From: Dehalococcoidia bacterium
Lineage (GTDB): Bacteria > Chloroflexota > Dehalococcoidia > Lucifugimonadales > UBA3495
Assembly: GCA_021295965.1 (NCBI GenBank)
Contig: JAGWBI010000001.1
Location: 11,420 to 75,419, forward strand
Direction of reading: 5' to 3'
Length of the DNA stretch: 64,000 bases
The position numbers and the translations under genes are program-made. Under the pieces are notes generated by a model. It had not been told where the DNA came from. It searched no databases and worked only from the letters and a program-made list of their open reading frames with translations. Below are positions 34,206 through 46,376 of the stretch, piece by piece (the first letter of the stretch is position 1; every line of letters starts with the position of its first letter).

Positions 34206-34799
34206 ATGGTCAACAACCAGGTTACACAACGGGTGGGCGAGGTCATGGTGTCGCACACCCAGCGGATTGAAGCACAGTGTTACCGACTGCACGCGGCGCC
34301 GCCTTTGGGAGCGCTGTTGCGCGTTGGCGAGTCGCCCGTATATGCCGTGGTCCGCGAAATCTGGCATGAGCCCCTGGACCCGACCCGCCCGCTGGCGCCC
34401 CGGGGGGAAACCCTGGAGTCCGAAGACGAAATATACGCCGCCAACCCGCAGTTGAGCGCCATGCTGACCACCAGGTTCGCGGCGGTAGTGGTGGGATATG
34501 GCGATGGAACGGACCTGCGACCGGGCCTGCCGGATCAGCCTCCGGGCCTGCACTCGTTTGTATCCCTTTGCGACCTTGGCGAGTTGGCACGTTTCGCCTC
34601 CGACCTGCGATGGCTTCGGCTGATGCTGGCCGACCGCACGCCGGTCGGCGACACGGCCCTGTCCTTATTCCTGCGCCGGGCCGCGGACTCCGTTGACGAC
34701 CGGCGAGGTTTTTTGAAACGGGCCGGGCAGGCACTGGTTGCGGAATTGTTTAGCGAACCCCTGCGGATGCAGGCGTTGCTGAGGGAAGTGTTAGCTTGA
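34206..34799 (+). CDS. Hypothetical protein with HAS-barrel-like N-terminus, coupled to the HerA-like ATPase
   Basis: GEVMVSHTQRIEAQCYRLHAAPPLGALLRVGESPVYAVVREI resembles the HerA N-terminal barrel. The stop overlaps the TTG start of the next gene (TTGA). Confidence 0.45.
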   Translation: MVNNQVTQRVGEVMVSHTQRIEAQCYRLHAAPPLGALLRVGESPVYAVVREIWHEPLDPTRPLAPRGETLESEDEIYAANPQLSAMLTTRFAAVVVGYGDGTDLRPGLPDQPPGLHSFVSLCDLGELARFASDLRWLRLMLADRTPVGDTALSLFLRRAADSVDDRRGFLKRAGQALVAELFSEPLRMQALLREVLA

Positions 34800-36487
34800 C
34801 CCTGAACGGCGAAGGAGCCAACGGTTATTTCTCCCCCGGCCAGCGCCGGCTCGGGTTGGTCGTTGGCGGCTCGTTGTCCCGCGGGTTGGATGTACGCCTG
34901 GATACAGCGAACGGAGCATCCCTGGAGGATATCGCCGTCGGTTCGTTCGTGACGGTCCAGGGTCGGCGGAAGCGGTACTTTGCCGTGGTGACCGATCTGG
35001 AGCTGCGGGCGGTGGATGATAGCGTGCGTCATTTTCCGCCGGACACGCGAGACGGCTACCTCGCCGAGGTAATGGCCGGTACCATGGCTTACGGCCAGCT
35101 GTCGGTGATGCCCAGCATGACGGCCGGCCTGGATGACTCCGGCACAAACGTTGCCGAGCAGGCCAAGTCTATACCGGAACACTTCGCCCCCGTCTTCGCA
35201 GCGTCCCAGGCCGACATTGACGCCGTGTTCAACGCGGAGAGGAGCAGCGCATTCGCGCTGGGTTCGCCGCAGGGGATGGACGCAGCCTCCATTCGGCTGG
35301 ATCTGGGGACATTGGCCAGCCGGTCGGTGGGCGTGTTCGGCGCATCGGGTTCGGGAAAGACGTTCCTGGCGCGGATGTTGCTGGCCGGGCTGGTGAAACA
35401 GGGCCAGACGGTGTCGCTGGTGTTCGACATGGAAAGCGAATATGGCTGGCAGGGACAGGACAACGACCGCCGCCGACAGGTAAAAGGATTGAAACAACTC
35501 TTCCCCAGCCGTGTGGTCACCTTCACGCTGGACGAGGCGAGCAGCCGGCGAAGGGGAGTTACGCCTGACGGCGTGGTGCGCATCGGTTACGACGAAGTGG
35601 AGCCGTCTGACATCGAGATCCTGCGTGAATCAATGCAGTTATCGGAGGTGGCGACGGCGGCGGCTTGGAACCTGAAGCAACGGTTCGGAGACGGTTGGTT
35701 GAAAGAATTTCTGGCACACTCCGGCGCCGATTTGGGAGATTTGGCACGGGAGATCGGCGTCAACCAGGCGGCGTTGGGCGCGCTGCATAATCGTTTAAAC
35801 CGTTGGAGCCGTTTCGGTTTCCTGGTTGATCGAGGTGAAGGCGCTGCCAGCGCCGGCGGCATCATCGAGCAGTTGGAGCGCGGCAACCACGTGGTGCTGG
35901 AGTTCGGCCAATACGGACGCGACACATCGGCGTACGTGCTGGTGAGCAACCTGCTGACCCGGCGCATACATGATACCTGGGTGCGCCGCAAGGAACTGGC
36001 CGACGGCGGCCAGGGAGACGAACCGCGTCCGCTGGTGATATTCGTCGAAGAGGCCCACAAGTTCCTGACGACGGACATCGCATCCCAGACCATTTTCGGC
36101 TCCATCGCCCGCGAACTGCGCAAGTACAACGTCACGCTGATGATCGTTGACCAACGACCCAGCGGCATCGACTCCGAGGTGATGAGCCAGCTGGGAACCC
36201 GCCTGTCCTGCGCCTTGAACGACGACCGGGATATGAACGCCGTGCTGATGGGCGCCCGTGACGCCGGCCAGCTTCGCAATGTGCTGGCCCGACTGGACAG
36301 CAAGCAGCAGGCGCTGGTGTTCGGCCACGCCGTGCCGATGCCCGTGGTGGTCCGGCCCCGGGACTACGACGAAACCTTTTATGCAGATATGGCCGTGACC
36401 GCCGAGGTAGCCGGAGTAGCCGCGTTGGGCGAAACCGATACGGAGCGGATGCAGCGGGAAATCGACGAGCTGTTTCCACCGGAGTAA
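34796..36487 (+). CDS. HerA/FtsK-like ATPase (DUF87 family)
   Basis: N-terminal HAS barrel (VGSFVTVQGRRKRYFAVVTDLEL), Walker A GASGSGKTF, Walker B LVIFVEEAHKFL, and MIVDQRPSGIDSEVMSQLGTRL. Confidence 0.75.
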   Translation: MTLNGEGANGYFSPGQRRLGLVVGGSLSRGLDVRLDTANGASLEDIAVGSFVTVQGRRKRYFAVVTDLELRAVDDSVRHFPPDTRDGYLAEVMAGTMAYGQLSVMPSMTAGLDDSGTNVAEQAKSIPEHFAPVFAASQADIDAVFNAERSSAFALGSPQGMDAASIRLDLGTLASRSVGVFGASGSGKTFLARMLLAGLVKQGQTVSLVFDMESEYGWQGQDNDRRRQVKGLKQLFPSRVVTFTLDEASSRRRGVTPDGVVRIGYDEVEPSDIEILRESMQLSEVATAAAWNLKQRFGDGWLKEFLAHSGADLGDLAREIGVNQAALGALHNRLNRWSRFGFLVDRGEGAASAGGIIEQLERGNHVVLEFGQYGRDTSAYVLVSNLLTRRIHDTWVRRKELADGGQGDEPRPLVIFVEEAHKFLTTDIASQTIFGSIARELRKYNVTLMIVDQRPSGIDSEVMSQLGTRLSCALNDDRDMNAVLMGARDAGQLRNVLARLDSKQQALVFGHAVPMPVVVRPRDYDETFYADMAVTAEVAGVAALGETDTERMQREIDELFPPE

Positions 36488-36528: not shown

Positions 36529-37380
36529 ATGCTCAGAATGAGGGTTGTCGAAACGTGCGCGGAGATGATGGCGGCGTGCCGGCAGGCGGCCCGTCCGCTG
36601 GGTTTGGTCCCGACCATGGGGGCGCTGCATGAGGGGCATCTTTCGCTGACGCGGCAGGCGCGGGCGGACAACGTGACCATGGCCGCCTCTATATTCGTCA
36701 ATCCCACCCAGTTCGGCCCCAACGAGGATTTCGCCCGCTACCCCCGCAGCCTGGAACGCGATCTGGAACTGCTGGAGACGGAAGGAACCGACCTGGTATT
36801 CGTTCCACCGCCCGACGAGGTTTATCCCGAAGGCTTCGACACCTGGATAGAGCCGGGCGCAGTGGCGGAAGGCATGGAAGGCGCGGCCCGTCCCGGGCAT
36901 TTTCGCGGGGTGGCCACGGTGGTCGCCAAACTGTTCACCATCACCCGCCCGGAACTGGCCTACTTCGGCCAGAAAGACGGCCAACAGGTGGCAGTAATCC
37001 GCAAGATGAACCATGACCTCAATCTGGGCGTGGAGATCGTCACCATGCCCACCATCCGAGAACCCGACGGCCTGGCCCTCAGCAGCCGCAACGCCTACCT
37101 GACCCCGGAGCAGCGCGAAGCCGCGCCGGCTGTGTACCGCGCACTATGCGCGGCAGAGGATGTTTGGCGCCGGGGCGAAAGGGACGCGGCGCGGGTCCAG
37201 CGGGCTGCCTACAACATCTTGGAACGCGAGACCTTGGTGGATGCCGTGGACTACGTCAGCGTAGTAGATGCCGACAGCATGCGACCGGTCGAAACCGTGC
37301 AGAACGACCTGGAGCTGATGATTGCTACAGCGGTGCGCCTGGGGTCGGTGCGGTTGATTGACAACGTGGTGCTAGGTTGA
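36529..37380 (+). CDS. panC: Pantoate--beta-alanine ligase
   Basis: LVPTMGALHEGHLSL and FVNPTQFGPNEDF motifs. Confidence 0.9.
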   Translation: MLRMRVVETCAEMMAACRQAARPLGLVPTMGALHEGHLSLTRQARADNVTMAASIFVNPTQFGPNEDFARYPRSLERDLELLETEGTDLVFVPPPDEVYPEGFDTWIEPGAVAEGMEGAARPGHFRGVATVVAKLFTITRPELAYFGQKDGQQVAVIRKMNHDLNLGVEIVTMPTIREPDGLALSSRNAYLTPEQREAAPAVYRALCAAEDVWRRGERDAARVQRAAYNILERETLVDAVDYVSVVDADSMRPVETVQNDLELMIATAVRLGSVRLIDNVVLG

Positions 37381-37419: not shown

Positions 37420-37857
37420 CTATTCGGATTCCTCGGTATCTAGCACCTGAACTACGGGGTCCCCTATGGTGACGTAACTGTTTTCTTCATCCATTTGGTC
37501 GCCCAGTTCTTCAAAAGACTCTCTAACCCGGAGCGTTTCGCGACGCGTTTCCCATTTCGGAGGCTGGAACAGAGCAGAAAATGTCGTCCCTGTTCCCCCA
37601 ACGTTGACGCGCATGGTTCGGTAGGTTGATGCGACAGATACTTTATCGCTAACGCGCGTGATCTTAACACGCGTTTTAGGCAACTCAACAGGTCCTAATT
37701 CTTCGCCCGTGTCCGGATCGGTCACCCCAACCTCAAACAATATATCGAACAGCATTCCAGTTTCTACACCTTGGATTTTGCCGATGTTCAAGGCAACTTC
37801 ACGTGACGTTAGTATTTTTGCGATTTTTCCACGTATGGGCTCCGTGCGTATTGCCAT
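37420..37857 (-). CDS. Hypothetical protein (146 aa from MAIRTEPIRGK)
   Basis: ATG at 37857 is preceded by GGGGAG. Sits in AT-shifted DNA. I recognise no family. Confidence 0.45.
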   Translation of the reverse strand: MAIRTEPIRGKIAKILTSREVALNIGKIQGVETGMLFDILFEVGVTDPDTGEELGPVELPKTRVKITRVSDKVSVASTYRTMRVNVGGTGTTFSALFQPPKWETRRETLRVRESFEELGDQMDEENSYVTIGDPVVQVLDTEESE

Positions 37858-38269
37858 TTTGCTCGACTCCCCAACGCGCTGGCCATGATCCCAGTATCTC
37901 ATCAACATCGTCTGGCACAATATCCCGCCAGTCTTCCACGGCAGACCCACCAGTGGGAATCTGTTCATTAACTATTGCTTGGATGACGTTCAATCGGTAG
38001 TCAAAACTCCCTTCCGTCTTGTAATCCTCTATCCGCTCAGATACGCGAAAGAGACTATCCCGCAAGGACAGAATCCTACGTATCGAAGCCCGAGCATGTG
38101 GACGTATCACATCGTAATCTGCAGCCTTGGCGGCGTTGCGACCAAATCGGTATGAGCCAAGTAACCCGTTCGCCAACGTCACTATCTGAAAGAGGATATT
38201 TTCAAGCCGGGTTAGATCGCGTATTGGGGATACTGAAATCATCCCGCACAACGCAATCAAGAATGCCAA
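37799..38269 (-). CDS. Hypothetical protein (TTG start; hydrophobic N-terminus, possibly 5'-truncated)
   Basis: The ORF opens right after a TAG, and the in-frame upstream peptide DIPLIGLG continues the hydrophobic segment. It overlaps the next ORF by 59 nt. No recognisable family. Confidence 0.35.
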   Translation of the reverse strand: MAFLIALCGMISVSPIRDLTRLENILFQIVTLANGLLGSYRFGRNAAKAADYDVIRPHARASIRRILSLRDSLFRVSERIEDYKTEGSFDYRLNVIQAIVNEQIPTGGSAVEDWRDIVPDDVDEILGSWPARWGVEQNGNTHGAHTWKNRKNTNVT

Positions 38270-40399: not shown

Positions 40400-41407
40400 T
40401 CAAATTTCGCGGAACTCCGGTTCGGCGGGCTCGATATAGAAGTTGTTGGCCCACAGGTCGTCGATGATGGCCTGATCGCCCTCGGTGATAGGCGGCGTTT
40501 CCACGGCGTCGGAATACTCTTTCAGTTCTTCCAGCGTGGTGAAGTTGGGCAACACGCTGGTGATGGTGGGCTGGTGCAGCACGAACTGGATGGCCGCCTG
40601 GCTCATGCTCCGCCCGACTTCCTCGCCCGCCAGGAACTTTACCTGGTCCACCTTGACCAACGCCTCGCTGAGCCACTGGTGACGGCGATACGAGCGATGG
40701 TCGTTTTCGTCGAACTCGGGCGGCGCATCGTACCGTCCCGTCAGCGCCTCGGAGGCATGGGGAACGCGGGACAGCAAACCCACCTGCTCCTTCTCGGCGA
40801 TGGGGAAGAAGTCCTTGGCCGGATCCTGCTCCAGGATGCTGTAGATAATCTGGCAGCTATCGACGTGGCGCTCCTTCATGCTGGCTTCGCCCTCTTCAAA
40901 CCAGCCGATGTCGGGGCCGAGGGCCGACCCGTAGTAGCGGATTTTCCCCTCGTGCTTCAGCGCCTCCAGGGTCTCGAATACGTCGTCGTCCTCGATGGCG
41001 GCGATGCGGGGGTTGTGCAGTTGGTAGAGGTCGATATAGTCGGTATTCAACCGGCGCAGAGACTGCTCGCAGGCGAACCGGATGAAGTCCGGCTCGAACT
41101 TCTGCGGACGTTCCTGGTGGCCGACGCGGGGCGTGGTCTGGTCGTAGATGTCATAGCCGAACTTGGTGGCGATGATCATGTCGTGGCGACGGTGGCTCAT
41201 GAACTTGGCGAGGACCTCTTCGCCGTAGCCGTCGCCGTAGGTGTCGGCCGTGTCGAAGAAATTGATGCCCAGTTCCAGGGCCTCCTCCAGCAACTGGCGG
41301 CGCGTCTCCTCAGGGATACGACCCCACCAATTGGTGGCCACGGTCCAAACGCCGAAGCCCACTTCGGAAATCAAAAGATCGGTGCGGGGAAGTTGGCGGT
41401 ATTTCAT
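40400..41407 (-). CDS. Aldo/keto reductase
   Basis: GINFFDTADTYGDGYGE and overall AKR pattern. Confidence 0.85.
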   Translation of the reverse strand: MKYRQLPRTDLLISEVGFGVWTVATNWWGRIPEETRRQLLEEALELGINFFDTADTYGDGYGEEVLAKFMSHRRHDMIIATKFGYDIYDQTTPRVGHQERPQKFEPDFIRFACEQSLRRLNTDYIDLYQLHNPRIAAIEDDDVFETLEALKHEGKIRYYGSALGPDIGWFEEGEASMKERHVDSCQIIYSILEQDPAKDFFPIAEKEQVGLLSRVPHASEALTGRYDAPPEFDENDHRSYRRHQWLSEALVKVDQVKFLAGEEVGRSMSQAAIQFVLHQPTITSVLPNFTTLEELKEYSDAVETPPITEGDQAIIDDLWANNFYIEPAEPEFREI

Positions 41408-41411
41408 GGTG

Positions 41412-42023
41412 TCATCTTCCTTGGGTAGCGTTGCTGAGCCAGCGGCTCATGCCTTCGATGAAATCGTCCCTTACCGGGCCGGACGCGCCGCAGAATTCGG
41501 CGATCAACTGCTCTTTGAACGCCTGTGGGTCCTGGCCTGATAGCACTTCGTAAGTGTCAATTGGGTCACAGGCGATGTTCATGTTTTCGCCGTCGTTAAC
41601 CCATCTGTTGACCGGCATCCCCAGAGGTTCGGCGCTGCCGGGCCAAGTGGCATCCACGGTCATCCAGCCCCTGATTGTTTTCAACCTGAGGTAGGTGTGA
41701 ACGTCAGGAACAGGTTCCTGAGCAACCAACGCCCGTAACTCCGGCGGAAAATGCCCCGTGTTATCCAGCGTGAAGCGATGTGTACACATGATGACGCGGG
41801 AATCCATCCCTAACTGGCGGAAGATTCGGTCAAGCGCGTAATGCTTGCCGGAACAGGTGCCGCGCCATTCTTGAATGATGGCTTCCGGCTGCCGAGAGCT
41901 GGCCCGCTGATACGGAATATCCCGCACCAGCGCGAAGGCGGTAGCTGGCGTGAGGGTTTCACCGGCGGGCAGCAGGTTTCGCCAGCGGCTTTCCTGTTCC
42001 AGCAAGGATAGGAGGGTTGACAT
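41412..42023 (-). CDS. Transglutaminase-like (Cys-His-Asp) superfamily protein
   Basis: WRGTCSGKHYALDRIFRQLGMDSRVIM (Cys), PDVHTYLRL (His), GWMTVDATW (Asp) follow the transglutaminase-core order. Lies only 2 nt after the upstream ORF stop. Confidence 0.55.
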   Translation of the reverse strand: MSTLLSLLEQESRWRNLLPAGETLTPATAFALVRDIPYQRASSRQPEAIIQEWRGTCSGKHYALDRIFRQLGMDSRVIMCTHRFTLDNTGHFPPELRALVAQEPVPDVHTYLRLKTIRGWMTVDATWPGSAEPLGMPVNRWVNDGENMNIACDPIDTYEVLSGQDPQAFKEQLIAEFCGASGPVRDDFIEGMSRWLSNATQGR

Positions 42024-42025
42024 GG

Positions 42026-42484
42026 TTATGCCTTGTCGTTCGGGGACGGAGCGGCGGGATAAACTTCACGATGATTAACCTGCCGGGCCAGTATAGCCAC
42101 AACGTCAGTATCATCCTCAGTGTACCCGAAGATGCCAGTGTGTGAAGGGTCGTGTGATTCACCCAAAGTTGCGATTTGAATGTCCATGTCCAAATCACTC
42201 TTGCACACCGCAATGGCAGTACCGACATTAAGGACAGCAAACGCCGTATTACCCCTGACGCGAAAGCCTTTGTCGGTCAGAGCCTGCCGAACTCCGGCGA
42301 TTTGCGCTTGCCGGTCCGCATCGTGAAAGTGCTCCAGCCAGTTGGTGGAGAGGTATTTTTCACCGGGCCGGAGCCGGAAGGCGTTTTCTTGTGGCACCCC
42401 GTTGACCATATCACGTGCCCGGCAGTATCGGGCCACATGGTGGTGCCCCAATAACCGTCCTCGTTGAGCAGAGGCTAGCGACAT
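42026..42484 (-). CDS. Hypothetical protein (152 aa), fourth gene of the AIPR operon
   Basis: The ORF overlaps the upstream gene by 10 nt. His-rich conserved-looking patches (GHHHVARYCR, YLSTNWLEHFHD, ESHDPSHTGIFGY). No family recognised. Confidence 0.5.
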   Translation of the reverse strand: MSLASAQRGRLLGHHHVARYCRARDMVNGVPQENAFRLRPGEKYLSTNWLEHFHDADRQAQIAGVRQALTDKGFRVRGNTAFAVLNVGTAIAVCKSDLDMDIQIATLGESHDPSHTGIFGYTEDDTDVVAILARQVNHREVYPAAPSPNDKA

Positions 42485-42915
42485 TTAAGCAGTCCTTCTG
42501 CGGCCAATTTTCGCGTAATCGTTTTGCTGGTCGTAGTTTTTCTACCACCACGAATGTTGACAAATTTGCCGTCGCGGTCGGTAGCAGTGAACGTAACTTT
42601 GTCACTATCTACAAACCATAAAGCGGCGTTCCTTTTGTCTTCAAACCGCAACCCGACGCAAAGCCAGCCCTCTTGCGAGCAAGTCAGATCAATCTTGCCT
42701 TCGGTTTCCACCGCGCCGAAAAAAGCCACGAACCCCCGGGCGCTTTCGAGGGTCAGCGGAACATCGCCGTTATCCAGATCTTCATCGGAGGCAAAGTAGG
42801 CCAAGCGGTCGGCCAGGTCGGGATGGCCCCAGCCGCGCAGCACGTCGTCCACCTCGGCGATGGAGCGAAGGCGGGCGATGGCGTCCGAGGGGAGGGGGCG
42901 GGGGGTGGTGGTCAT
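42475..42915 (-). CDS. Hypothetical protein (146 aa), third gene of the AIPR operon
   Basis: ATGA overlap with the AIPR stop. No family recognised. Confidence 0.5.
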   Translation of the reverse strand: MTTTPRPLPSDAIARLRSIAEVDDVLRGWGHPDLADRLAYFASDEDLDNGDVPLTLESARGFVAFFGAVETEGKIDLTCSQEGWLCVGLRFEDKRNAALWFVDSDKVTFTATDRDGKFVNIRGGRKTTTSKTITRKLAAEGLLKCR

Positions 42916-44744
42916 GGTGGTGGCAGATTGGCAAACGGGTTGCCGAAGGTTCGCGCTAATCGTGATGCCCCCTGCAAATTGGATTCTATCAATCGGTAGC
43001 TTGCAGCAGTACGGAAAAATTCTCTGTCATTGCCCGTGAATGTTCCACGGTCCTCGGCTTCCTGTCGAGAGTTTCTGATCGCGGCAACTGCAACTGTGTA
43101 CATAGGCACCAACCAGCCGTCAACCTGTTCGGCGATTGTTACCGCCCGATGGGCTGGAAAGAGGTTGCCTTGGAGTTGGTAATGCTCACGCAGTAGGTTA
43201 CCCATGAGCCAAACGATATGAAAGCGAGCGTACTCCAGCCAATCCTCTTCGGTTTTGTCGTTTTCCACTTGCTTCCACACATTGCTCTGCACTACTGCTG
43301 GGAGCAACAACTGCGCGGCGGCGATGTTCTCTGTATAGATGGCATCGTAGCTGAATTCACTCTCGCGAGCTATGGACGATACGGGTTCTTTGTTAAGAAA
43401 TGCCCGGATTTTGTCTTTTGCTTCCCCTGGAAATCCTGCGAATGATACAACTGCCTGAGCAACTTCTTTGCTGGTCAGCTTTCTGTATCCTCCTTCCGGT
43501 CGCCGGTACTGTTCTTTGGCAGTCGCTCCACCGAGCATTTTGTCCCATTCGCCTCGCTTGATTTGATAAAACCAAGGTGGCGTCATCCCCATAGACTCGC
43601 GTTGGAGTCTGATTTGTACAGCCTCGTTGGAAGTGAAGTCTTCTGCGCGCAATGCAGTTTGACTGTTGGTAGTTGCCGCAATGGTGTTTGCAAAATGCGA
43701 AGGGCACGCTGTGAGTTTGACCGTGACCAAGACACCGGGATCGTTTTGGACAGCGGCTCTCGCGTTCCAGAGAGTAACCGTAGTTTGGCAACCATTGATA
43801 ATCTGAAAGTCGCGTACAATTAGCTGATCCCCTTCCAACCGATATGCTTCGCAAAACGCAGTGATACCGTTGTTAAGCAGGTGGAATCGCCTGCGGTCTA
43901 TTTCATCAAGTAGCGTGCGCTTGATTGATGTGTTCACTTTATTACCCAGAGGCCCCCGGGGATTCAGCCGGAAGATTCTAAAGCCGTGCCTTGCAAACAC
44001 GTCGATAATCTGCTTGACCGGTACCGTCATTGACAGAGTACGGTATTCAGTATCGGGATGGGTTTGGTGGTAAGACTCCGGCTCCAGCTGAAAAGTGAAA
44101 TCACACGGCGTGAGAACGTCATCGCTTACCTGTTGATTTTCGTGCTGCTCGTATAGATCATCCAAGTCCAAGCATTCCAAGGTCACTGTAACGTCAGTGG
44201 GGTTGCCGCCAACGTCAAAGGTCAGTACCCGGGAGCGATTTGTTTCGGCGTTTCGTCGCCCGGTGGGACTTAACCTGCCGCTGGTAGCCCAAATCATATT
44301 TATTGAGCAGGACCTCTCCCGTGACGCCAGCCGTTTGACGAGCTCATCATGAAGGGCCTTGGTCTCAAAATTGTTGCAAGCGGCAACCTCGTTGGCGTTG
44401 AGCAAGCGGATGGGGGCGTTTAAGAACGCTGCAAACTCCCCAGCCCCCATTGTAGTCCCCGGTTCGCGGCGCTTGCTTTGGAGCAGATGAATGACTGAAT
44501 CGTCATCGGATTCCGGAATGAAGTACCCGTCAATCTCGAAATCATCAGTGCCTTCAATGGCGGTAGCCTCAACTATGTCGTTCCCCTGGACATCGTGACC
44601 CACGCCAAAAACTGTAGCAAACCCCCAATGGCGAAAGCCCCGGTCGAGGTTGCCACCATAGTATTCGTCGGCCGCTTCTTCAATGAACGGCAGTATGTGG
44701 TCGTAGCGGTCTTGGGCCACTTGCCGTCGGCTGGTCATGGTCAC
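42912..44744 (-). CDS. AIPR family abortive-infection protein (N-terminal PD-(D/E)xK-like module plus AIPR domain)
   Basis: DDFEIDGYFIPESDDDSVIHLLQSKRR (D...Q-x-K nuclease-like motif) and the AIPR hallmark LLNNGITAFCE...FQIINGCQTTVTL. Confidence 0.8.
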   Translation of the reverse strand: MTMTSRRQVAQDRYDHILPFIEEAADEYYGGNLDRGFRHWGFATVFGVGHDVQGNDIVEATAIEGTDDFEIDGYFIPESDDDSVIHLLQSKRREPGTTMGAGEFAAFLNAPIRLLNANEVAACNNFETKALHDELVKRLASRERSCSINMIWATSGRLSPTGRRNAETNRSRVLTFDVGGNPTDVTVTLECLDLDDLYEQHENQQVSDDVLTPCDFTFQLEPESYHQTHPDTEYRTLSMTVPVKQIIDVFARHGFRIFRLNPRGPLGNKVNTSIKRTLLDEIDRRRFHLLNNGITAFCEAYRLEGDQLIVRDFQIINGCQTTVTLWNARAAVQNDPGVLVTVKLTACPSHFANTIAATTNSQTALRAEDFTSNEAVQIRLQRESMGMTPPWFYQIKRGEWDKMLGGATAKEQYRRPEGGYRKLTSKEVAQAVVSFAGFPGEAKDKIRAFLNKEPVSSIARESEFSYDAIYTENIAAAQLLLPAVVQSNVWKQVENDKTEEDWLEYARFHIVWLMGNLLREHYQLQGNLFPAHRAVTIAEQVDGWLVPMYTVAVAAIRNSRQEAEDRGTFTGNDREFFRTAASYRLIESNLQGASRLARTFGNPFANLPPP

Positions 44745-45079
44745 ATTCCCAAATGCAACATGATCGCATCGCCCCGATAGGGCAAATTGTCAACCCATTG
44801 CAGCAGCGTTGCCCGGTCAGAAGCGTCCAGGTTCTTCTTCACAGCCCAACCATCGGCGCGCCTGAGTAACACATCCCGCTCGAACTCGTAGAGGGCATTG
44901 CCTTCCCAGCCATCGCCCCAAGTTGGTTCATAGTCGAACGTGTCAAACTCGTTTCCCACGTCCGAGTCGGTCATCAAGTCTTGCAGAAACCCGTACATCG
45001 GTTGCCCGGGCTGCTCCAAGTATTCGATGGTCACCACCCCAATGTCCAGTCCCATCGCCATTGCCTCGCAAATTGGCAT
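44741..45079 (-). CDS. Hypothetical protein (112-126 aa), first gene of the AIPR operon
   Basis: The stop overlaps the AIPR GTG start (GTGA). Start is either ATG at 45079 or TTG at 45121. Acidic, Trp/Gly-rich (EPTWGDGWEGNALYEF). No family recognised. Confidence 0.45.
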   Translation of the reverse strand: MPICEAMAMGLDIGVVTIEYLEQPGQPMYGFLQDLMTDSDVGNEFDTFDYEPTWGDGWEGNALYEFERDVLLRRADGWAVKKNLDASDRATLLQWVDNLPYRGDAIMLHLGM

Positions 45080-45148
45080 GGCTATAGTTTTGCGGACCCG
45101 GAAGCAGGCGTCAACAACCAACTGTCATCAATTTCGCATCGGCGCCCA

Positions 45149-45739
45149 CTACGCCGGCACCAATCCCAAGCTTCCCCGCACGGCTTCTACCATCTCGCCG
45201 AACCGCGCGTCGTCAATCACCGGCCTCGCGTTGCCCAAGCGAACGGTGGGGATAATATCCACCCAGGACTTGCAGCCGCCGTACTCGGGGATGTAGGACA
45301 CGGTGGTGGGCGATTCCATCTCGTAAACCCGCAGCAGCATGATGGTCAGCGGCACCATGGGCTTCCAGTGCAGGCGAGACTGGGCGTAGGTGTCGGTCCA
45401 GATGTGGTGGGGCGCCAGGTCTTCCACCTTGCCCTGCTGATCGATCTCGATGAGCTCGTGGACGCGGGCCCAGTGGGTGAATGTCACGGCGTCCTTGTCG
45501 TCAGGGTCGTCAGCCAGCAGTTGCCGCAGCGTGGGCTGGTGGCTGTCCTTGAGCAGCTCTTCCTTCTGATGCAGGTAGGTGGGATAGAGCAGGAACTCGG
45601 GATGCACCACGCGGAAGTCCTTGCTCTCCTCGTGGATGCCGCCCTTGCGGAGCATCATGATCTGGTCGCCATCAGCCAGCGCCTTCACGGTTATCGCCCA
45701 CTCTTTCAGGGCCAGTTGGCAGGTTGCGGGAGTGGTCAT
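45149..45739 (-). CDS. DUF1802 family protein
   Basis: Start MTTPATCQLALKEWAITVKALADGDQIMMLRKGGIHE at 45739. The listed longer ORF reads through MITE copy 3. Confidence 0.55.
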   Translation of the reverse strand: MTTPATCQLALKEWAITVKALADGDQIMMLRKGGIHEESKDFRVVHPEFLLYPTYLHQKEELLKDSHQPTLRQLLADDPDDKDAVTFTHWARVHELIEIDQQGKVEDLAPHHIWTDTYAQSRLHWKPMVPLTIMLLRVYEMESPTTVSYIPEYGGCKSWVDIIPTVRLGNARPVIDDARFGEMVEAVRGSLGLVPA

Positions 45740-45781
45740 GGCGTCAACCTCCGTTGTAATTGCCTCGGAAACTTTTGAACT

Positions 45782-45883
45782 GTCATTGCGAGGAGCGTAG
45801 CCCGATCTTTGACAAATCTGGCAATCGCGCGCCGAGGGATGCACATTACCATAACGAGATTGCCACGCTGCCCTCGCAATGAC
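45782..45883. mobile_element. MITE-like palindromic element, copy 3
   Basis: GTCATTGCGAGGAGCG...TGGCAATCGC...GAGATTGCCACGCTGCCCTCGCAATGAC. Confidence 0.6.
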
Positions 45884-45902
45884 AAGGGGCTGCGGTCGGA
45901 GT

Positions 45903-46376
45903 TTACTTCTCCCGGTTGCAGAACTCTCCATAGTCGGGTACGTCTTCGCCCAGCACGTACATCCAGTAGTAGGTGCCGGTGTCGCCCATGTACTTGAACT
46001 GCTTGCGCACGTCCTTCAGCACGCCGTAGAAATCGCCGTGGGAGCGCAGGTAGTTGCGGATGTCGCCGCCGTATTCTTCCTCCAGCTCGATAAGCCGCTG
46101 AGCATTGTGGACGGTGGCGACGATCTTGCGTCGGTTGCGGATGATGGCAGTATCAGCGGCCAGCGTGTCAATCGCGGATTCGCCCATCGCGGCAACCCTC
46201 GCCACGTCGAACCCGTGGAAGCCGGCCTGAAAGCCGGGCCACTTGGTGTTGACCACCTTCCACGACATCCCGCTCTGGAAGACGGCTTTGGTCATAACTT
46301 CCAGGTAGTCGTTCAGGCTCTGCGGCACGATCTGCGGCGGCGCTTCCGGGTGCTGCCGTTCCTGATGGGTGGCCAT
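45903..46376 (-). CDS. tag: DNA-3-methyladenine glycosylase I-like protein
   Basis: VMTKAVFQSGMSWKVVNTKWPGFQAGFHGFDVARVAAM...AIIRNRRKI matches the Tag core (QAGLSW...F.FD...IIRHRGKI). It lacks the N-terminal Zn-binding Cys of E. coli Tag. Confidence 0.6.
   Translation of the reverse strand: MATHQERQHPEAPPQIVPQSLNDYLEVMTKAVFQSGMSWKVVNTKWPGFQAGFHGFDVARVAAMGESAIDTLAADTAIIRNRRKIVATVHNAQRLIELEEEYGGDIRNYLRSHGDFYGVLKDVRKQFKYMGDTGTYYWMYVLGEDVPDYGEFCNREK

Follow-up and report, generated by a model that had tools for sequence, protein, structure and literature searches.

Introduction

Two described systems offer the closest comparison for proteins of the AIPR family, which are often linked with restriction-modification systems (PMC3506569). 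In AbiU of Lactococcus lactis (AbiUi/AbiU1, PF10592), AbiUi alone confers resistance; the protein is nuclease-like, its AlphaFold model having been superimposed on the restriction endonuclease 1FOK, and its activity is modulated downward by the neighbouring HEPN protein AbiUii (PMC13064643). In the MZA system (MzaABCDE), the AIPR protein is the component MzaE. Among two-gene systems, the nearest models are type II toxin-antitoxin pairs and PDC-M32, a PADLOC candidate composed of M32A and M32B and proposed through guilt-by-embedding; PDC systems are defined through their embedding in BREX, DISARM or restriction-modification loci. Defence hotspots with swappable cargo have been described as well, for example the P2/P4 hotspots (PMC9122126).

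Here we analyse a locus in a 64,000-nucleotide stretch of DNA (the window) from an uncultured member of the Dehalococcoidia (Chloroflexota). A sequence-only reading had proposed that four coupled genes around an AIPR gene, possibly joined by a transglutaminase-like fifth member, form one undescribed multi-component sensor/effector/immunity system. We compared the locus with about 50 related loci (numbered with the prefix L), which include 31 AIPR-family loci that were retrieved. It now appears probable that the region 42026-45055 represents two autonomous modules within a hypervariable defence/addiction hotspot, and not one system. The hotspot would lie between the housekeeping genes for a DUF1802 protein and an aldo-keto reductase, and would be occupied here by an A plus AIPR module, a C-D module and a passenger gene E.

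Results and discussion

Gene content, junctions and base composition

We refer to the genes as A (acidic ORF), B (AIPR), C and D (small ORFs) and E (transglutaminase-like); all of them are encoded on the minus strand (Table 1).

Table 1 Genes of the locus and of its two boundaries, with positions in the window
Feature	Coordinates	Strand	Length (aa)	Description
DUF1802 gene	45149..45739	-		Conserved upstream hotspot boundary; Pfam DUF1802 E 8.3e-59
Gene A	44741..45055	-	104	Acidic; partner conserved upstream of AIPR
Gene B	42912..44744	-	610	AIPR / AbiU(i)-type abortive-infection protein
Gene C	42475..42915	-	146	Upstream member of the C-D cassette, putative antidote
Gene D	42026..42484	-	152	Downstream member of the C-D cassette, putative toxin/effector
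Gene E	41412..42023	-	203	Transglutaminase-like
Aldo-keto reductase gene	40400..41407	-		Conserved downstream hotspot boundary

The four ORFs A to D were present where the sequence-only reading had placed them, and its description of the junctions proved accurate: GTGA joins the stop of A to the GTG of B, ATGA joins the stop of B to the start of C, C and D share a 10-nt overlap (ATGTCGCTAG), and E starts 2 nt past the stop of D (TAAccATG). The reported drop in GC content was also borne out, the cluster lying below its surroundings. Whole-gene GC amounted to 52.3% for B, 55.6% for A, 55.6% for D and 57.6% for C compared to a window mean of 61.5%, while GC3 was 56–70% within the cluster versus 77–84% in the flanking housekeeping genes. 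B exhibited the lowest GC and GC3 of the region. Some start sites had to be revised. A length of 112–126 aa had been given for A, whose ORF can be extended to a TTG at 45121, but the starts of the homologues match the ATG at 45055 and indicate 104 aa. Homologues of B begin with MTSRRQ, and the corresponding ATG lies 2 nt past the stop of A; A and B therefore either overlap by 4 nt or are separated by 2 nt. The true start of B is likely the ATG at 44738, yielding 608 aa. DUF1802 homologues called in relatives comprise 196 aa, and the start of the 260-aa ORF is therefore likely M65.

A hotspot with exchangeable cargo

In the AIPR scan, which covered 25 genome loci, each boundary gene kept its syntenic position in 19, with identities of 60–97% for the DUF1802 gene and 73–99% for the aldo-keto reductase gene, which is called as PF00248 in relatives. 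Assignment of gene content by HMM and tblastn revealed a range of architectures. A-B alone was found in L015 and L016, and A-B-C-D in L001, L004, L009, L018, L021 and L043, while A-B was followed by C-D arrays in L002 (four copies), L014 (3.5 copies), L052 (two copies) and L054 (three copies). In L051, a restriction-modification system separated A and a split B from two C-D copies. L053 carried a restriction-modification system and three C-D copies without A or B; it shares its sample of origin, and an identical last D, with L052. In L026, a 29-codon remnant of B stood between A and C-D, and L040 harboured C-D without AIPR in the same hotspot. AIPR without C-D was detected in L006–L008, L010, L012, L015–L017, L019, L020, L022 and L025. 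The split B genes (L011, L017, L051) and the split D (L014) are apparent pseudogenes, some of which may be long-read assembly errors.

Comparison of the window with L011 showed flanks that were 97–99% identical, whereas A, B, C and D shared 48, 69, 59 and 61% identity, respectively. Such near-identical flanks around diverged A to D genes point to an exchange of alleles there. The region is an island of the defence type whose content is exchanged horizontally. It resembles the P2/P4 hotspots in its conserved flanks and in its variable restriction-modification, Abi and toxin-antitoxin-like cargo in near-identical backgrounds, but differs in being chromosomal, with a metabolic gene on either side, and in that neither an integrase nor a phage/satellite backbone turned up at this hotspot in the loci examined. 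For the Chloroflexota, it provides an example, from uncultured Dehalococcoidia, of a defence hotspot on the chromosome in which AIPR and restriction-modification cargo is swapped.

Only two couplings were conserved, namely A immediately upstream of AIPR and C overlapping D. The A/B and C/D junctions were fixed, whereas the B/C spacing varied from –4 to about 190 nt and reached 580 nt where an aspartyl-protease-like gene was inserted. Among the loci compared, an overlap of B and C occurred only in the window and in L014; the ATGA overlap of the window is a chance product of dense local packing. The four-gene coupling that had looked invariant from a single sequence is thus separable in many genomes.

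The transglutaminase-like nature ascribed to E held up weakly (Transglut_core, E 6.5e-4), the match falling below the Pfam gathering score. Its suggested membership as a fifth component was not borne out: of the 31 AIPR-family loci, only five had an E gene that was detected, after the last D in L011, L013, L023 and L054 and between DUF1802 and A in L024. Judged by this distribution, E is a variable hotspot passenger and a member of neither module.

The AIPR protein and its small partner A

The identification of B as an AIPR protein was confirmed by Pfam PF10592 (E 2.6e-38; 132.8 bits against a gathering cutoff of 25, residues 258–524) and by the PADLOC AbiU model (E 9.5e-30), and PHROG 1841 was matched with an E-value of 5.8e-37. 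The two sequence blocks singled out beforehand, NGCQTT and DDFE.DGY...Q.K, were invariant in 22 full-length homologues, as was LNNG, and the homologues had 120 invariant positions in all. The DDFE.DGY...Q.K block is PD-(D/E)xK-like and belongs to the N-terminal half, while the AIPR core contains the motifs NPRGPL.NKVN, FH.LNNG.TA, NGCQTT, LRAED and WFY..KRG.W. A sequence search found no solved structure for B. B resembles AbiU in that it matches both the AIPR and the AbiU models and possesses a nuclease-like N-terminal half. With MZA it shares the AIPR-family component; the match to MzaE was weak (34.3 bits versus an NCBIfam cutoff of 1050), and an assignment of B as MzaE was rejected. Searches with NCBIfam and PADLOC found none of MzaA–D among A, C, D, E and the DUF1802 protein.

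Gene A encodes an acidic protein (pI 4.05; 20 D/E versus 7 K/R residues). Its homologues formed 45 clusters, all of 101–114 aa and none with a Pfam domain. A itself gave no match in Pfam, PADLOC, NCBIfam or a PDB sequence search, and the sole match in PHROGs was phrog_7156 (E 0.077; function not annotated). The AlphaFold model of A was confident (pLDDT 86.3, pTM 0.80), and a Foldseek search of the PDB returned nothing at E below 0.001. In an AIPR-centred system, the small ORFs would be expected to accompany AIPR elsewhere too; this was borne out for A, which accompanied it in 25 of 31 such loci, and not for C and D. In 22 loci A directly preceded AIPR, and in three (L007, L008, L017) it followed it in convergent orientation; the A stop abutted or overlapped the AIPR start in essentially all loci with both genes. 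L006, L010, L012, L019, L020 and L022 contained AIPR without A. The loci with AIPR alone or with a convergent A indicate that A is not an indispensable antitoxin and that co-translation is not obligatory.

We propose that the AIPR protein would act as an abortive-infection nuclease of the AbiU type and that A may be a modulator co-translated with it in stoichiometric amounts, which would most likely serve as an inhibitor or a DNA-mimic-like brake until removed by a phage cue. As with AbiUi and AbiUii, the putative nuclease has a neighbouring gene, and A would be functionally analogous to AbiUii, not homologous: A is a 104-aa acidic protein encoded upstream, with no recognised fold and a family restricted to Chloroflexota-type genomes, whereas AbiUii is a HEPN protein. 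For the AIPR/AbiU proteins, this conserved small partner constitutes a testable candidate regulator.

The C-D gene pair

In C, a conserved beta-rich domain at the C-terminus is preceded by an acidic stretch, DEDLD.GD, and none of the 89 homologue clusters of C contained a Pfam domain. Aligned with the proteins encoded upstream of distant D homologues, C yielded an hhalign probability of 95.4% (E 1.9e-8, 120 columns), and the C HMM matched the D-partner proteins in L044–L047. Across eight C-type partner sequences, the sole fully invariant position besides hydrophobic residues was a proline. For D, 146 clusters of close homologues were obtained, and an exhaustive profile search (E ≤ 1e-3) extended the family to at least 1,589 representatives of 50%-identity clusters, nearly all of them stand-alone proteins of 138–150 aa. 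Throughout the wide family R19, F36, S46, E51 and H115 were invariant, while H16, C21 and W49 were near-invariant. The predicted structure of D was confident (pLDDT 84.5, pTM 0.80), and Foldseek found nothing at E < 0.001 among PDB and BFVD folds. D had no match in Pfam, NCBIfam or PHROGs, and neither C nor D had one in Pfam, NCBIfam or PDB sequences. The view that A, C and D belong to no named family was upheld by the searches of Pfam, NCBIfam, PHROGs and PADLOC.

A C-type ORF overlapped or abutted D in every D-family locus with enough upstream sequence, and this pairing was conserved in distant taxa of several phyla. Diverged tandem arrays of up to four copies occurred, among which the identities of C and D co-varied (r = 0.60, a descriptive value only). 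C-D without AIPR was found in L027–L030, L031–L039, L040, L044–L049 and L053. The pairs were located in four different transposase-flanked contexts, within an element with Rep and integrase genes (L037), and in two copies each in L044 and L046; in a Bacteroidota MAG, C-D adjoins a pair of OLD-ATPase and UvrD genes (Gabija-like). The distribution is autonomous, mobile and multi-copy. Intact C with an absent or decayed D was encountered in L003, L054 (unit 1) and L045 (unit 2), and no intact, confidently assigned D without an upstream C-like ORF was seen where sequence was available. As far as these sequences tell, C-D is an ancient, always-overlapping gene pair.

These features suggest that C-D is most likely a type II-like toxin-antidote cassette for addiction and/or abortive phage defence, with D as a putative enzymatic toxin and C as its cognate neutraliser. 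The pair resembles type II toxin-antitoxin systems in being small and overlapping with the putative antidote first, in its autonomous occurrence in variable islands beside toxin-antitoxin or defence genes, and in that the putative toxin decays before the putative antidote. It differs in that no antitoxin domain, whether HTH, RHH or another known type, was recognised in C and that D has no known toxin fold; furthermore, diverged arrays of three to four copies are unusual for classical toxin-antitoxin systems and closer to toxin/immunity arrays. The invariant R, S, E and H residues of D would be consistent with a metal-independent enzyme targeting nucleic acids or nucleotides, with a fold outside the PDB. 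As D lacks a known toxin fold, it is solely these conserved residues that hint at an enzyme; should D be one, it may represent new toxin chemistry or a new fold.

C-D is a very large two-gene family without a model in Pfam, NCBIfam or PHROGs and with a weak link to PDC-M32 only; it behaves in genomes like a toxin-antitoxin or defence cassette, and its confident models match no solved structure. We tentatively put forward, with somewhat more doubt than conviction, that C-D could be a large undescribed, array-diversifying toxin-antidote/defence family and A a new acidic regulator of AbiU/AIPR proteins. So read, C-D would span at least 1,589 clusters in several phyla, with a PDB-absent effector fold and diverged arrays in hotspots.

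Competing explanations

A single integrated system of sensor, effector and immunity functions, in which translational coupling would tie A, AIPR, C and D together and to which E may or may not belong, could be argued from the window, where every junction overlaps or nearly abuts. The A-B-C-D order is repeated in the six loci listed above, in L011 and in others, and the small proteins have no assignment to any named system. However, apart from A-B and C-D, every pair of components is found separated in one locus or another. C-D occurs without AIPR inside the hotspot, outside of it and in other phyla, AIPR occurs without C-D, and a restriction-modification system may stand between AIPR and C-D or replace A-AIPR; the tandem C-D arrays, the varying position of E and the restriction of the B/C overlap to two loci point in the same direction. 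The one-system model, which we regard as very improbable, is largely refuted by comparative genomics. The A-B-C-D order in at least ten species-level genomes is explained by common descent, and functional cross-talk would be compatible with it. Tight island packing can mimic an operon-encoded system, and comparative genomics can then resolve what looks like one operon into the units that really compose it.

Within a two-module locus, C-D could be a two-component anti-phage sensor and effector related to PDC-M32 that works without constitutive toxin neutralisation, a reading that we consider rather unlikely. The likeness is two-sided and in the right order, as the C-like partner in L044 matches PDC-M32A (E 4e-4) and 6 of 124 D-family members match PDC-M32B (best E 0.0028), the only PADLOC model matched by more than one of these 124. 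C-D neighbourhoods are also of the defence type (restriction-modification, AIPR, Gabija-like), in keeping with how PDC systems are defined. The PADLOC matches are weak, however, and most members have none; neither C and D of the window nor ten further relatives matched PDC-M32, and the M32A profile has 375 positions versus the 146 aa of C. Intact C next to decayed D, and never the reverse, is a better fit to antidote/toxin logic. Since toxin-antitoxin pairs frequently have a role in defence, the PDC-M32 reading also overlaps with the toxin-antidote explanation. Appreciably less probable again is an exchange of roles, with C as the toxin and D as the antitoxin, or with A as a positive cofactor or specificity subunit of AIPR. 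Reverse-order toxin-antitoxin systems exist, neither fold is recognisable, and AIPR persists in several genomes that lack A, as would fit A being an accessory or an activator. In favour of the assigned roles of C and D, orphan C with decayed D was repeatedly seen and orphan D never, and the invariant polar residues reside in D, not in C. In L026, an orphan A survives beside the deleted AIPR, which argues against the alternative roles of A.

Gene cluster and relatives

Positions 40400-45931 of the window hold minus-strand genes packed almost without spacers, in the order DUF1802 gene, A (a small acidic protein, pI 4.05), B (AIPR), C (146 aa), D (152 aa), E (transglutaminase-like) and aldo-keto reductase gene. 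The sequence-only reading had taken A to D, perhaps with E, as one AIPR-centred defence system. The junctions were found as it described them (GTGA at A/B, ATGA at B/C, a 10-nt overlap at C/D and TAAccATG at D/E), except that the 4-nt overlap at A/B may instead be a 2-nt spacer, because AIPR homologues start at MTSRRQ. The low GC reported across A-D also held, with both GC and GC3 depressed; B has 52.3% GC and 56% GC3, and the flanking housekeeping genes have a GC3 of 77-84%. A promoter and terminator scan of 41300-45300 returned counts at chance level and was thus uninformative on sub-operon structure, and a tRNA search found none near the variable stretch between the DUF1802 and aldo-keto reductase genes, termed the hotspot here. 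The 260-aa DUF1802 ORF overlaps a methyladenine glycosylase ORF; its true start is probably M65 (about 45739), since homologues comprise 196 aa, which would remove the overlap.

A scan for AIPR genes in one genome per species revealed 25 loci with B relatives, all in Dehalococcoidia MAGs (42-83% identity), and the window proteins were mapped by tblastn and HMMs onto these and 29 further loci. In most of the 25, the AIPR gene lay between DUF1802 and aldo-keto reductase genes, with variable cargo between these anchors. The proposed four- or five-gene system proved separable, A/B and C/D being the only conserved junctions; B/C spacing ranged from -4 to about 190 nt, and was 580 nt with an inserted gene. 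E, suggested earlier as a fifth member, appeared as an unrelated transglutaminase-like passenger that precedes A in L024. Genes flanking the hotspot were 97-99% identical between L011 and the window, while A, B, C and D shared only 48, 69, 59 and 61%, a signature of hotspot allele exchange.

On the best-supported reading the locus would be a defence/addiction hotspot, in which an AbiU-type module (its partner specific to the lineage) sits with a single copy of C-D and the unrelated passenger E; every functional statement made here is drawn from sequence and context. AIPR, hotspots and toxin-antitoxin logic are already known. A, as the partner, and C-D, as a family, would be moderately new; C-D stands out by how large it is, by folds that were not recognised and by its tandem arrays.

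Gene arrangements in the window and in related loci from other genomes or contigs (L numbers)
Arrangement	Loci
A-B only	L015, L016
A-B-C-D	L001, L004, L009, L018, L021, L043
A-B-C-D-E	window, L011
A-B with lone or fragmentary C	L003, L005
A-B, then tandem C-D	L002 (4 pairs), L014 (3 pairs and fragment), L052 (2), L054 (3)
A-B, aspartyl-protease-like gene, then C-D	L013, L023
A, split B, MTase and BsaWI-like REase, then 2 C-D pairs	L051
MTase and EcoO109I-like REase, then 3 C-D pairs, without A or B	L053 (same sample as L052, last D identical)
E, A, B fragment	L024
A, 29-codon B remnant, C-D	L026
C-D without AIPR	L040
Outside hotspot, AIPR alone	L006, L010, L012, L019, L022
Outside hotspot, AIPR with A convergently downstream	L007, L008, L017
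Outside hotspot, A-B	L025

Further cargo was observed inside the hotspot. A gene for a retropepsin-like aspartyl protease of 132-139 aa, with a DTGA motif and a match to Pfam Asp_protease_2 at E 1.3e-7, was recurrent; in L013 and L023 it stands between AIPR and the first C, beside a 35-codon duplicate C fragment. A 249-aa coiled-coil protein follows AIPR in L016, where C-D would be, and gave only chance-level matches (crescentin rod, LmuB). Frameshifts or stop codons interrupt the AIPR gene or the first D gene in several long-read MAGs, either because hotspot cargo is genuinely decaying into pseudogenes or through errors of assembly. In L042 the AIPR gene is broken into five pieces and the aldo-keto reductase gene is likewise split, and this locus looks truly degraded.

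Coordinates and matches of individual features
Sequence	Position	Strand	Feature	Match
Window	34796-36487	plus	563-aa HerA-like ATPase	Pfam DUF87, E 1.6e-19; PADLOC HerA models, up to E 3.2e-33
Window	36529-37380		panC
Window	37420-38269	minus	low-GC patch (about 50% GC)
Window		minus	E	Pfam transglutaminase-like, E 6.5e-4 (below Pfam cutoff)
Window	45149-45931	minus	DUF1802 ORF	Pfam, E 8.3e-59
Window	45903-46376		methyladenine glycosylase ORF
L001	5312-5596		A-like paralogue	HMM, E 1e-9 to 1e-11 (all copies)
L004	~5308		A-like paralogue
L005	~5308		A-like paralogue
L021	~5424		A-like paralogue
L026	4404-4682		A-like paralogue
L013	7964-8362		aspartyl protease gene	
L023	7964-8362		aspartyl protease gene
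L014	10972-11370		aspartyl protease gene
L005	8423-8842		aspartyl protease gene
L016	7969-8718	minus	coiled-coil protein
L011	6001-7836		split gene
L017	6001-7860		split gene
L051	736-2558		split gene
L042	5342-7167		split gene
L014	8269-8640		split gene
L053	4740-5549		ORF with fused C- and D-type domains
L050	4887-5417		176-aa hypothetical protein	D, E 3e-4

AIPR protein and its partner A

The assignment of B to the AIPR/AbiU type was confirmed and is clear (Pfam 132.8 bits; PADLOC AbiU 9.5e-30; PHROG 1841), and its PD-(D/E)xK-like and NGCQTT blocks were invariant among 22 homologues. An exact-sequence look-up of B gave no record, and its identity as an MzaE equivalog was ruled out (34 bits versus a cutoff of 1050). 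The AIPR protein AbiUi gives modest resistance when alone, and phage transcription is delayed; the AlphaFold model of AbiUi is nuclease-like and was superimposed on the restriction endonuclease 1FOK, and the neighbouring AbiUii reduces AbiUi activity (PMC13064643). AbiU-1 has been assigned to the PD-(D/E)XK superfamily (PMC13099982). AIPR genes are often linked to restriction-modification systems (PMC3506569), as also seen in L051.

For A, the reading frame stood and its proposed length of 112-126 aa did not: we place the start at ATG 45055, giving 104 aa, because all 45 homologue clusters measure 101-114 aa. These 45 clusters make up a small family, restricted to Chloroflexota as far as the sources tell. 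A lies directly upstream of AIPR in 22 loci, its stop overlapping the AIPR start or preceding it by 2-3 nt, and convergently downstream in three. It persists in L026, where AIPR is deleted, and six loci have AIPR without A, so neither gene strictly requires the other. As the weakest step of the argument, we infer that A would modulate the AIPR nuclease with which it is co-translated, most likely as a brake. A and C showed no relation by hhalign. Several relatives have, between the DUF1802 gene and A, an additional A-like paralogue of about 94 aa that is strongly diverged (about 29% identity); the window has no copy.

The C-D cassette

An exhaustive profile search placed D in a family of 1,589 representatives of 50%-identity clusters at E ≤ 1e-3 (749 at E ≤ 1e-10), nearly all of them stand-alone proteins of 138-150 aa and, where sampled, named only "hypothetical protein". 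This wide family keeps R19, F36, S46, E51 and H115 without exception, and H16, C21 and W49 almost always. Distant D relatives always had a C-type ORF upstream, overlapping or abutting, and no AIPR gene was near them in the loci examined. That the upstream partners are homologous to C was supported by hhalign (probability 95.4%, E 1.9e-8, 120 columns) and by HMM matches, and eight diverse ones share five invariant positions, namely hydrophobic L, F, W and F and one proline. The pair occurred at four different transposase-flanked sites and on short metagenome contigs. In L037 the contig also encodes a rolling-circle Rep and a protein resembling a tyrosine integrase, and in L044 and L046 two copies flank an amidohydrolase gene. 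In L047-L049, from a Bacteroidota MAG, the pair directly follows Gabija-like genes for an OLD-type ATPase and a UvrD helicase.

Copies in tandem arrays share 51-73% identity and are mostly intact ORFs; their subtypes are common to several genomes, with C and D identities co-varying (r 0.60). The first D of L014 and of L054 is split or decayed, and the last L014 unit is a fragment. In decayed units D was lost or fragmented and C intact (L003, L054 unit 1, L045 unit 2), while the reverse was never seen in the loci examined. Such asymmetry is predicted for a pair of toxin (D) and antidote (C), and a widespread, unnamed toxin-antitoxin-like cassette would be the best-supported reading of C-D. In L053, a 269-aa ORF encodes a C-type and a complete D-type domain fused in frame, either naturally or as an assembly frameshift artefact.

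Neither A, C nor D had a significant match in Pfam, NCBIfam, PHROGs or PADLOC, and searches of PDB sequences with B and with profiles of A, C and D (narrow and wide) gave chance-level matches only. AlphaFold models of A (pLDDT 86.3, pTM 0.80) and D (pLDDT 84.5, pTM 0.80) were confident, and in Foldseek searches of the PDB neither had a match under E 0.08 (TM ≤ 0.35); in BFVD, D had a single marginal match, to a viral protein without a name (E 4.6e-3, TM 0.42). Viral contig scans with D and B revealed no relatives, and D had no match in a phage collection. In a plasmid collection D matched two Rhizobium proteins (E about 3e-4), which we set outside the family because neither the HxxRYC and PSH motifs nor a C-type partner is present. 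The protein on Rhizobium gallicum plasmid pRgalR602b (L050), marginally similar to D, retains a YLSxxWxEYF segment and adjoins a VapC/DUF433 pair; it may represent a D-family branch that has degenerated or is very distant.

The only database lead for C-D, a weak, two-sided one, would be PDC-M32: a C-type protein matched PADLOC PDC-M32A weakly (E 4e-4), and PDC-M32B, the sole model matched repeatedly, was hit by 6 of 124 D-type proteins (best E 2.8e-3). The window C and D and ten further relatives did not match PDC-M32, and PDC systems are candidates only, defined by embedding in BREX, DISARM or restriction-modification loci. Motif-based ideas of D as a 2H-phosphoesterase, ART/RES or barnase/YoeB-like protein found support in no search and are speculation.

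Other loci in the window

The low-GC patch between panC and the ETF-alpha gene, which looks like a second variable hotspot, holds two overlapping ORFs (156 and 182 aa), the larger with a weak FlgT_C-like match (E 2.5e-5, below cutoff). At the equivalent position L052 has a 151- and 152-aa pair whose second protein shows the same weak match, and L054 has a BrnT/CopG-like toxin-antitoxin pair instead. The HerA-like ATPase could be part of a defence system associated with HerA, or could act in HerA-NurA repair.
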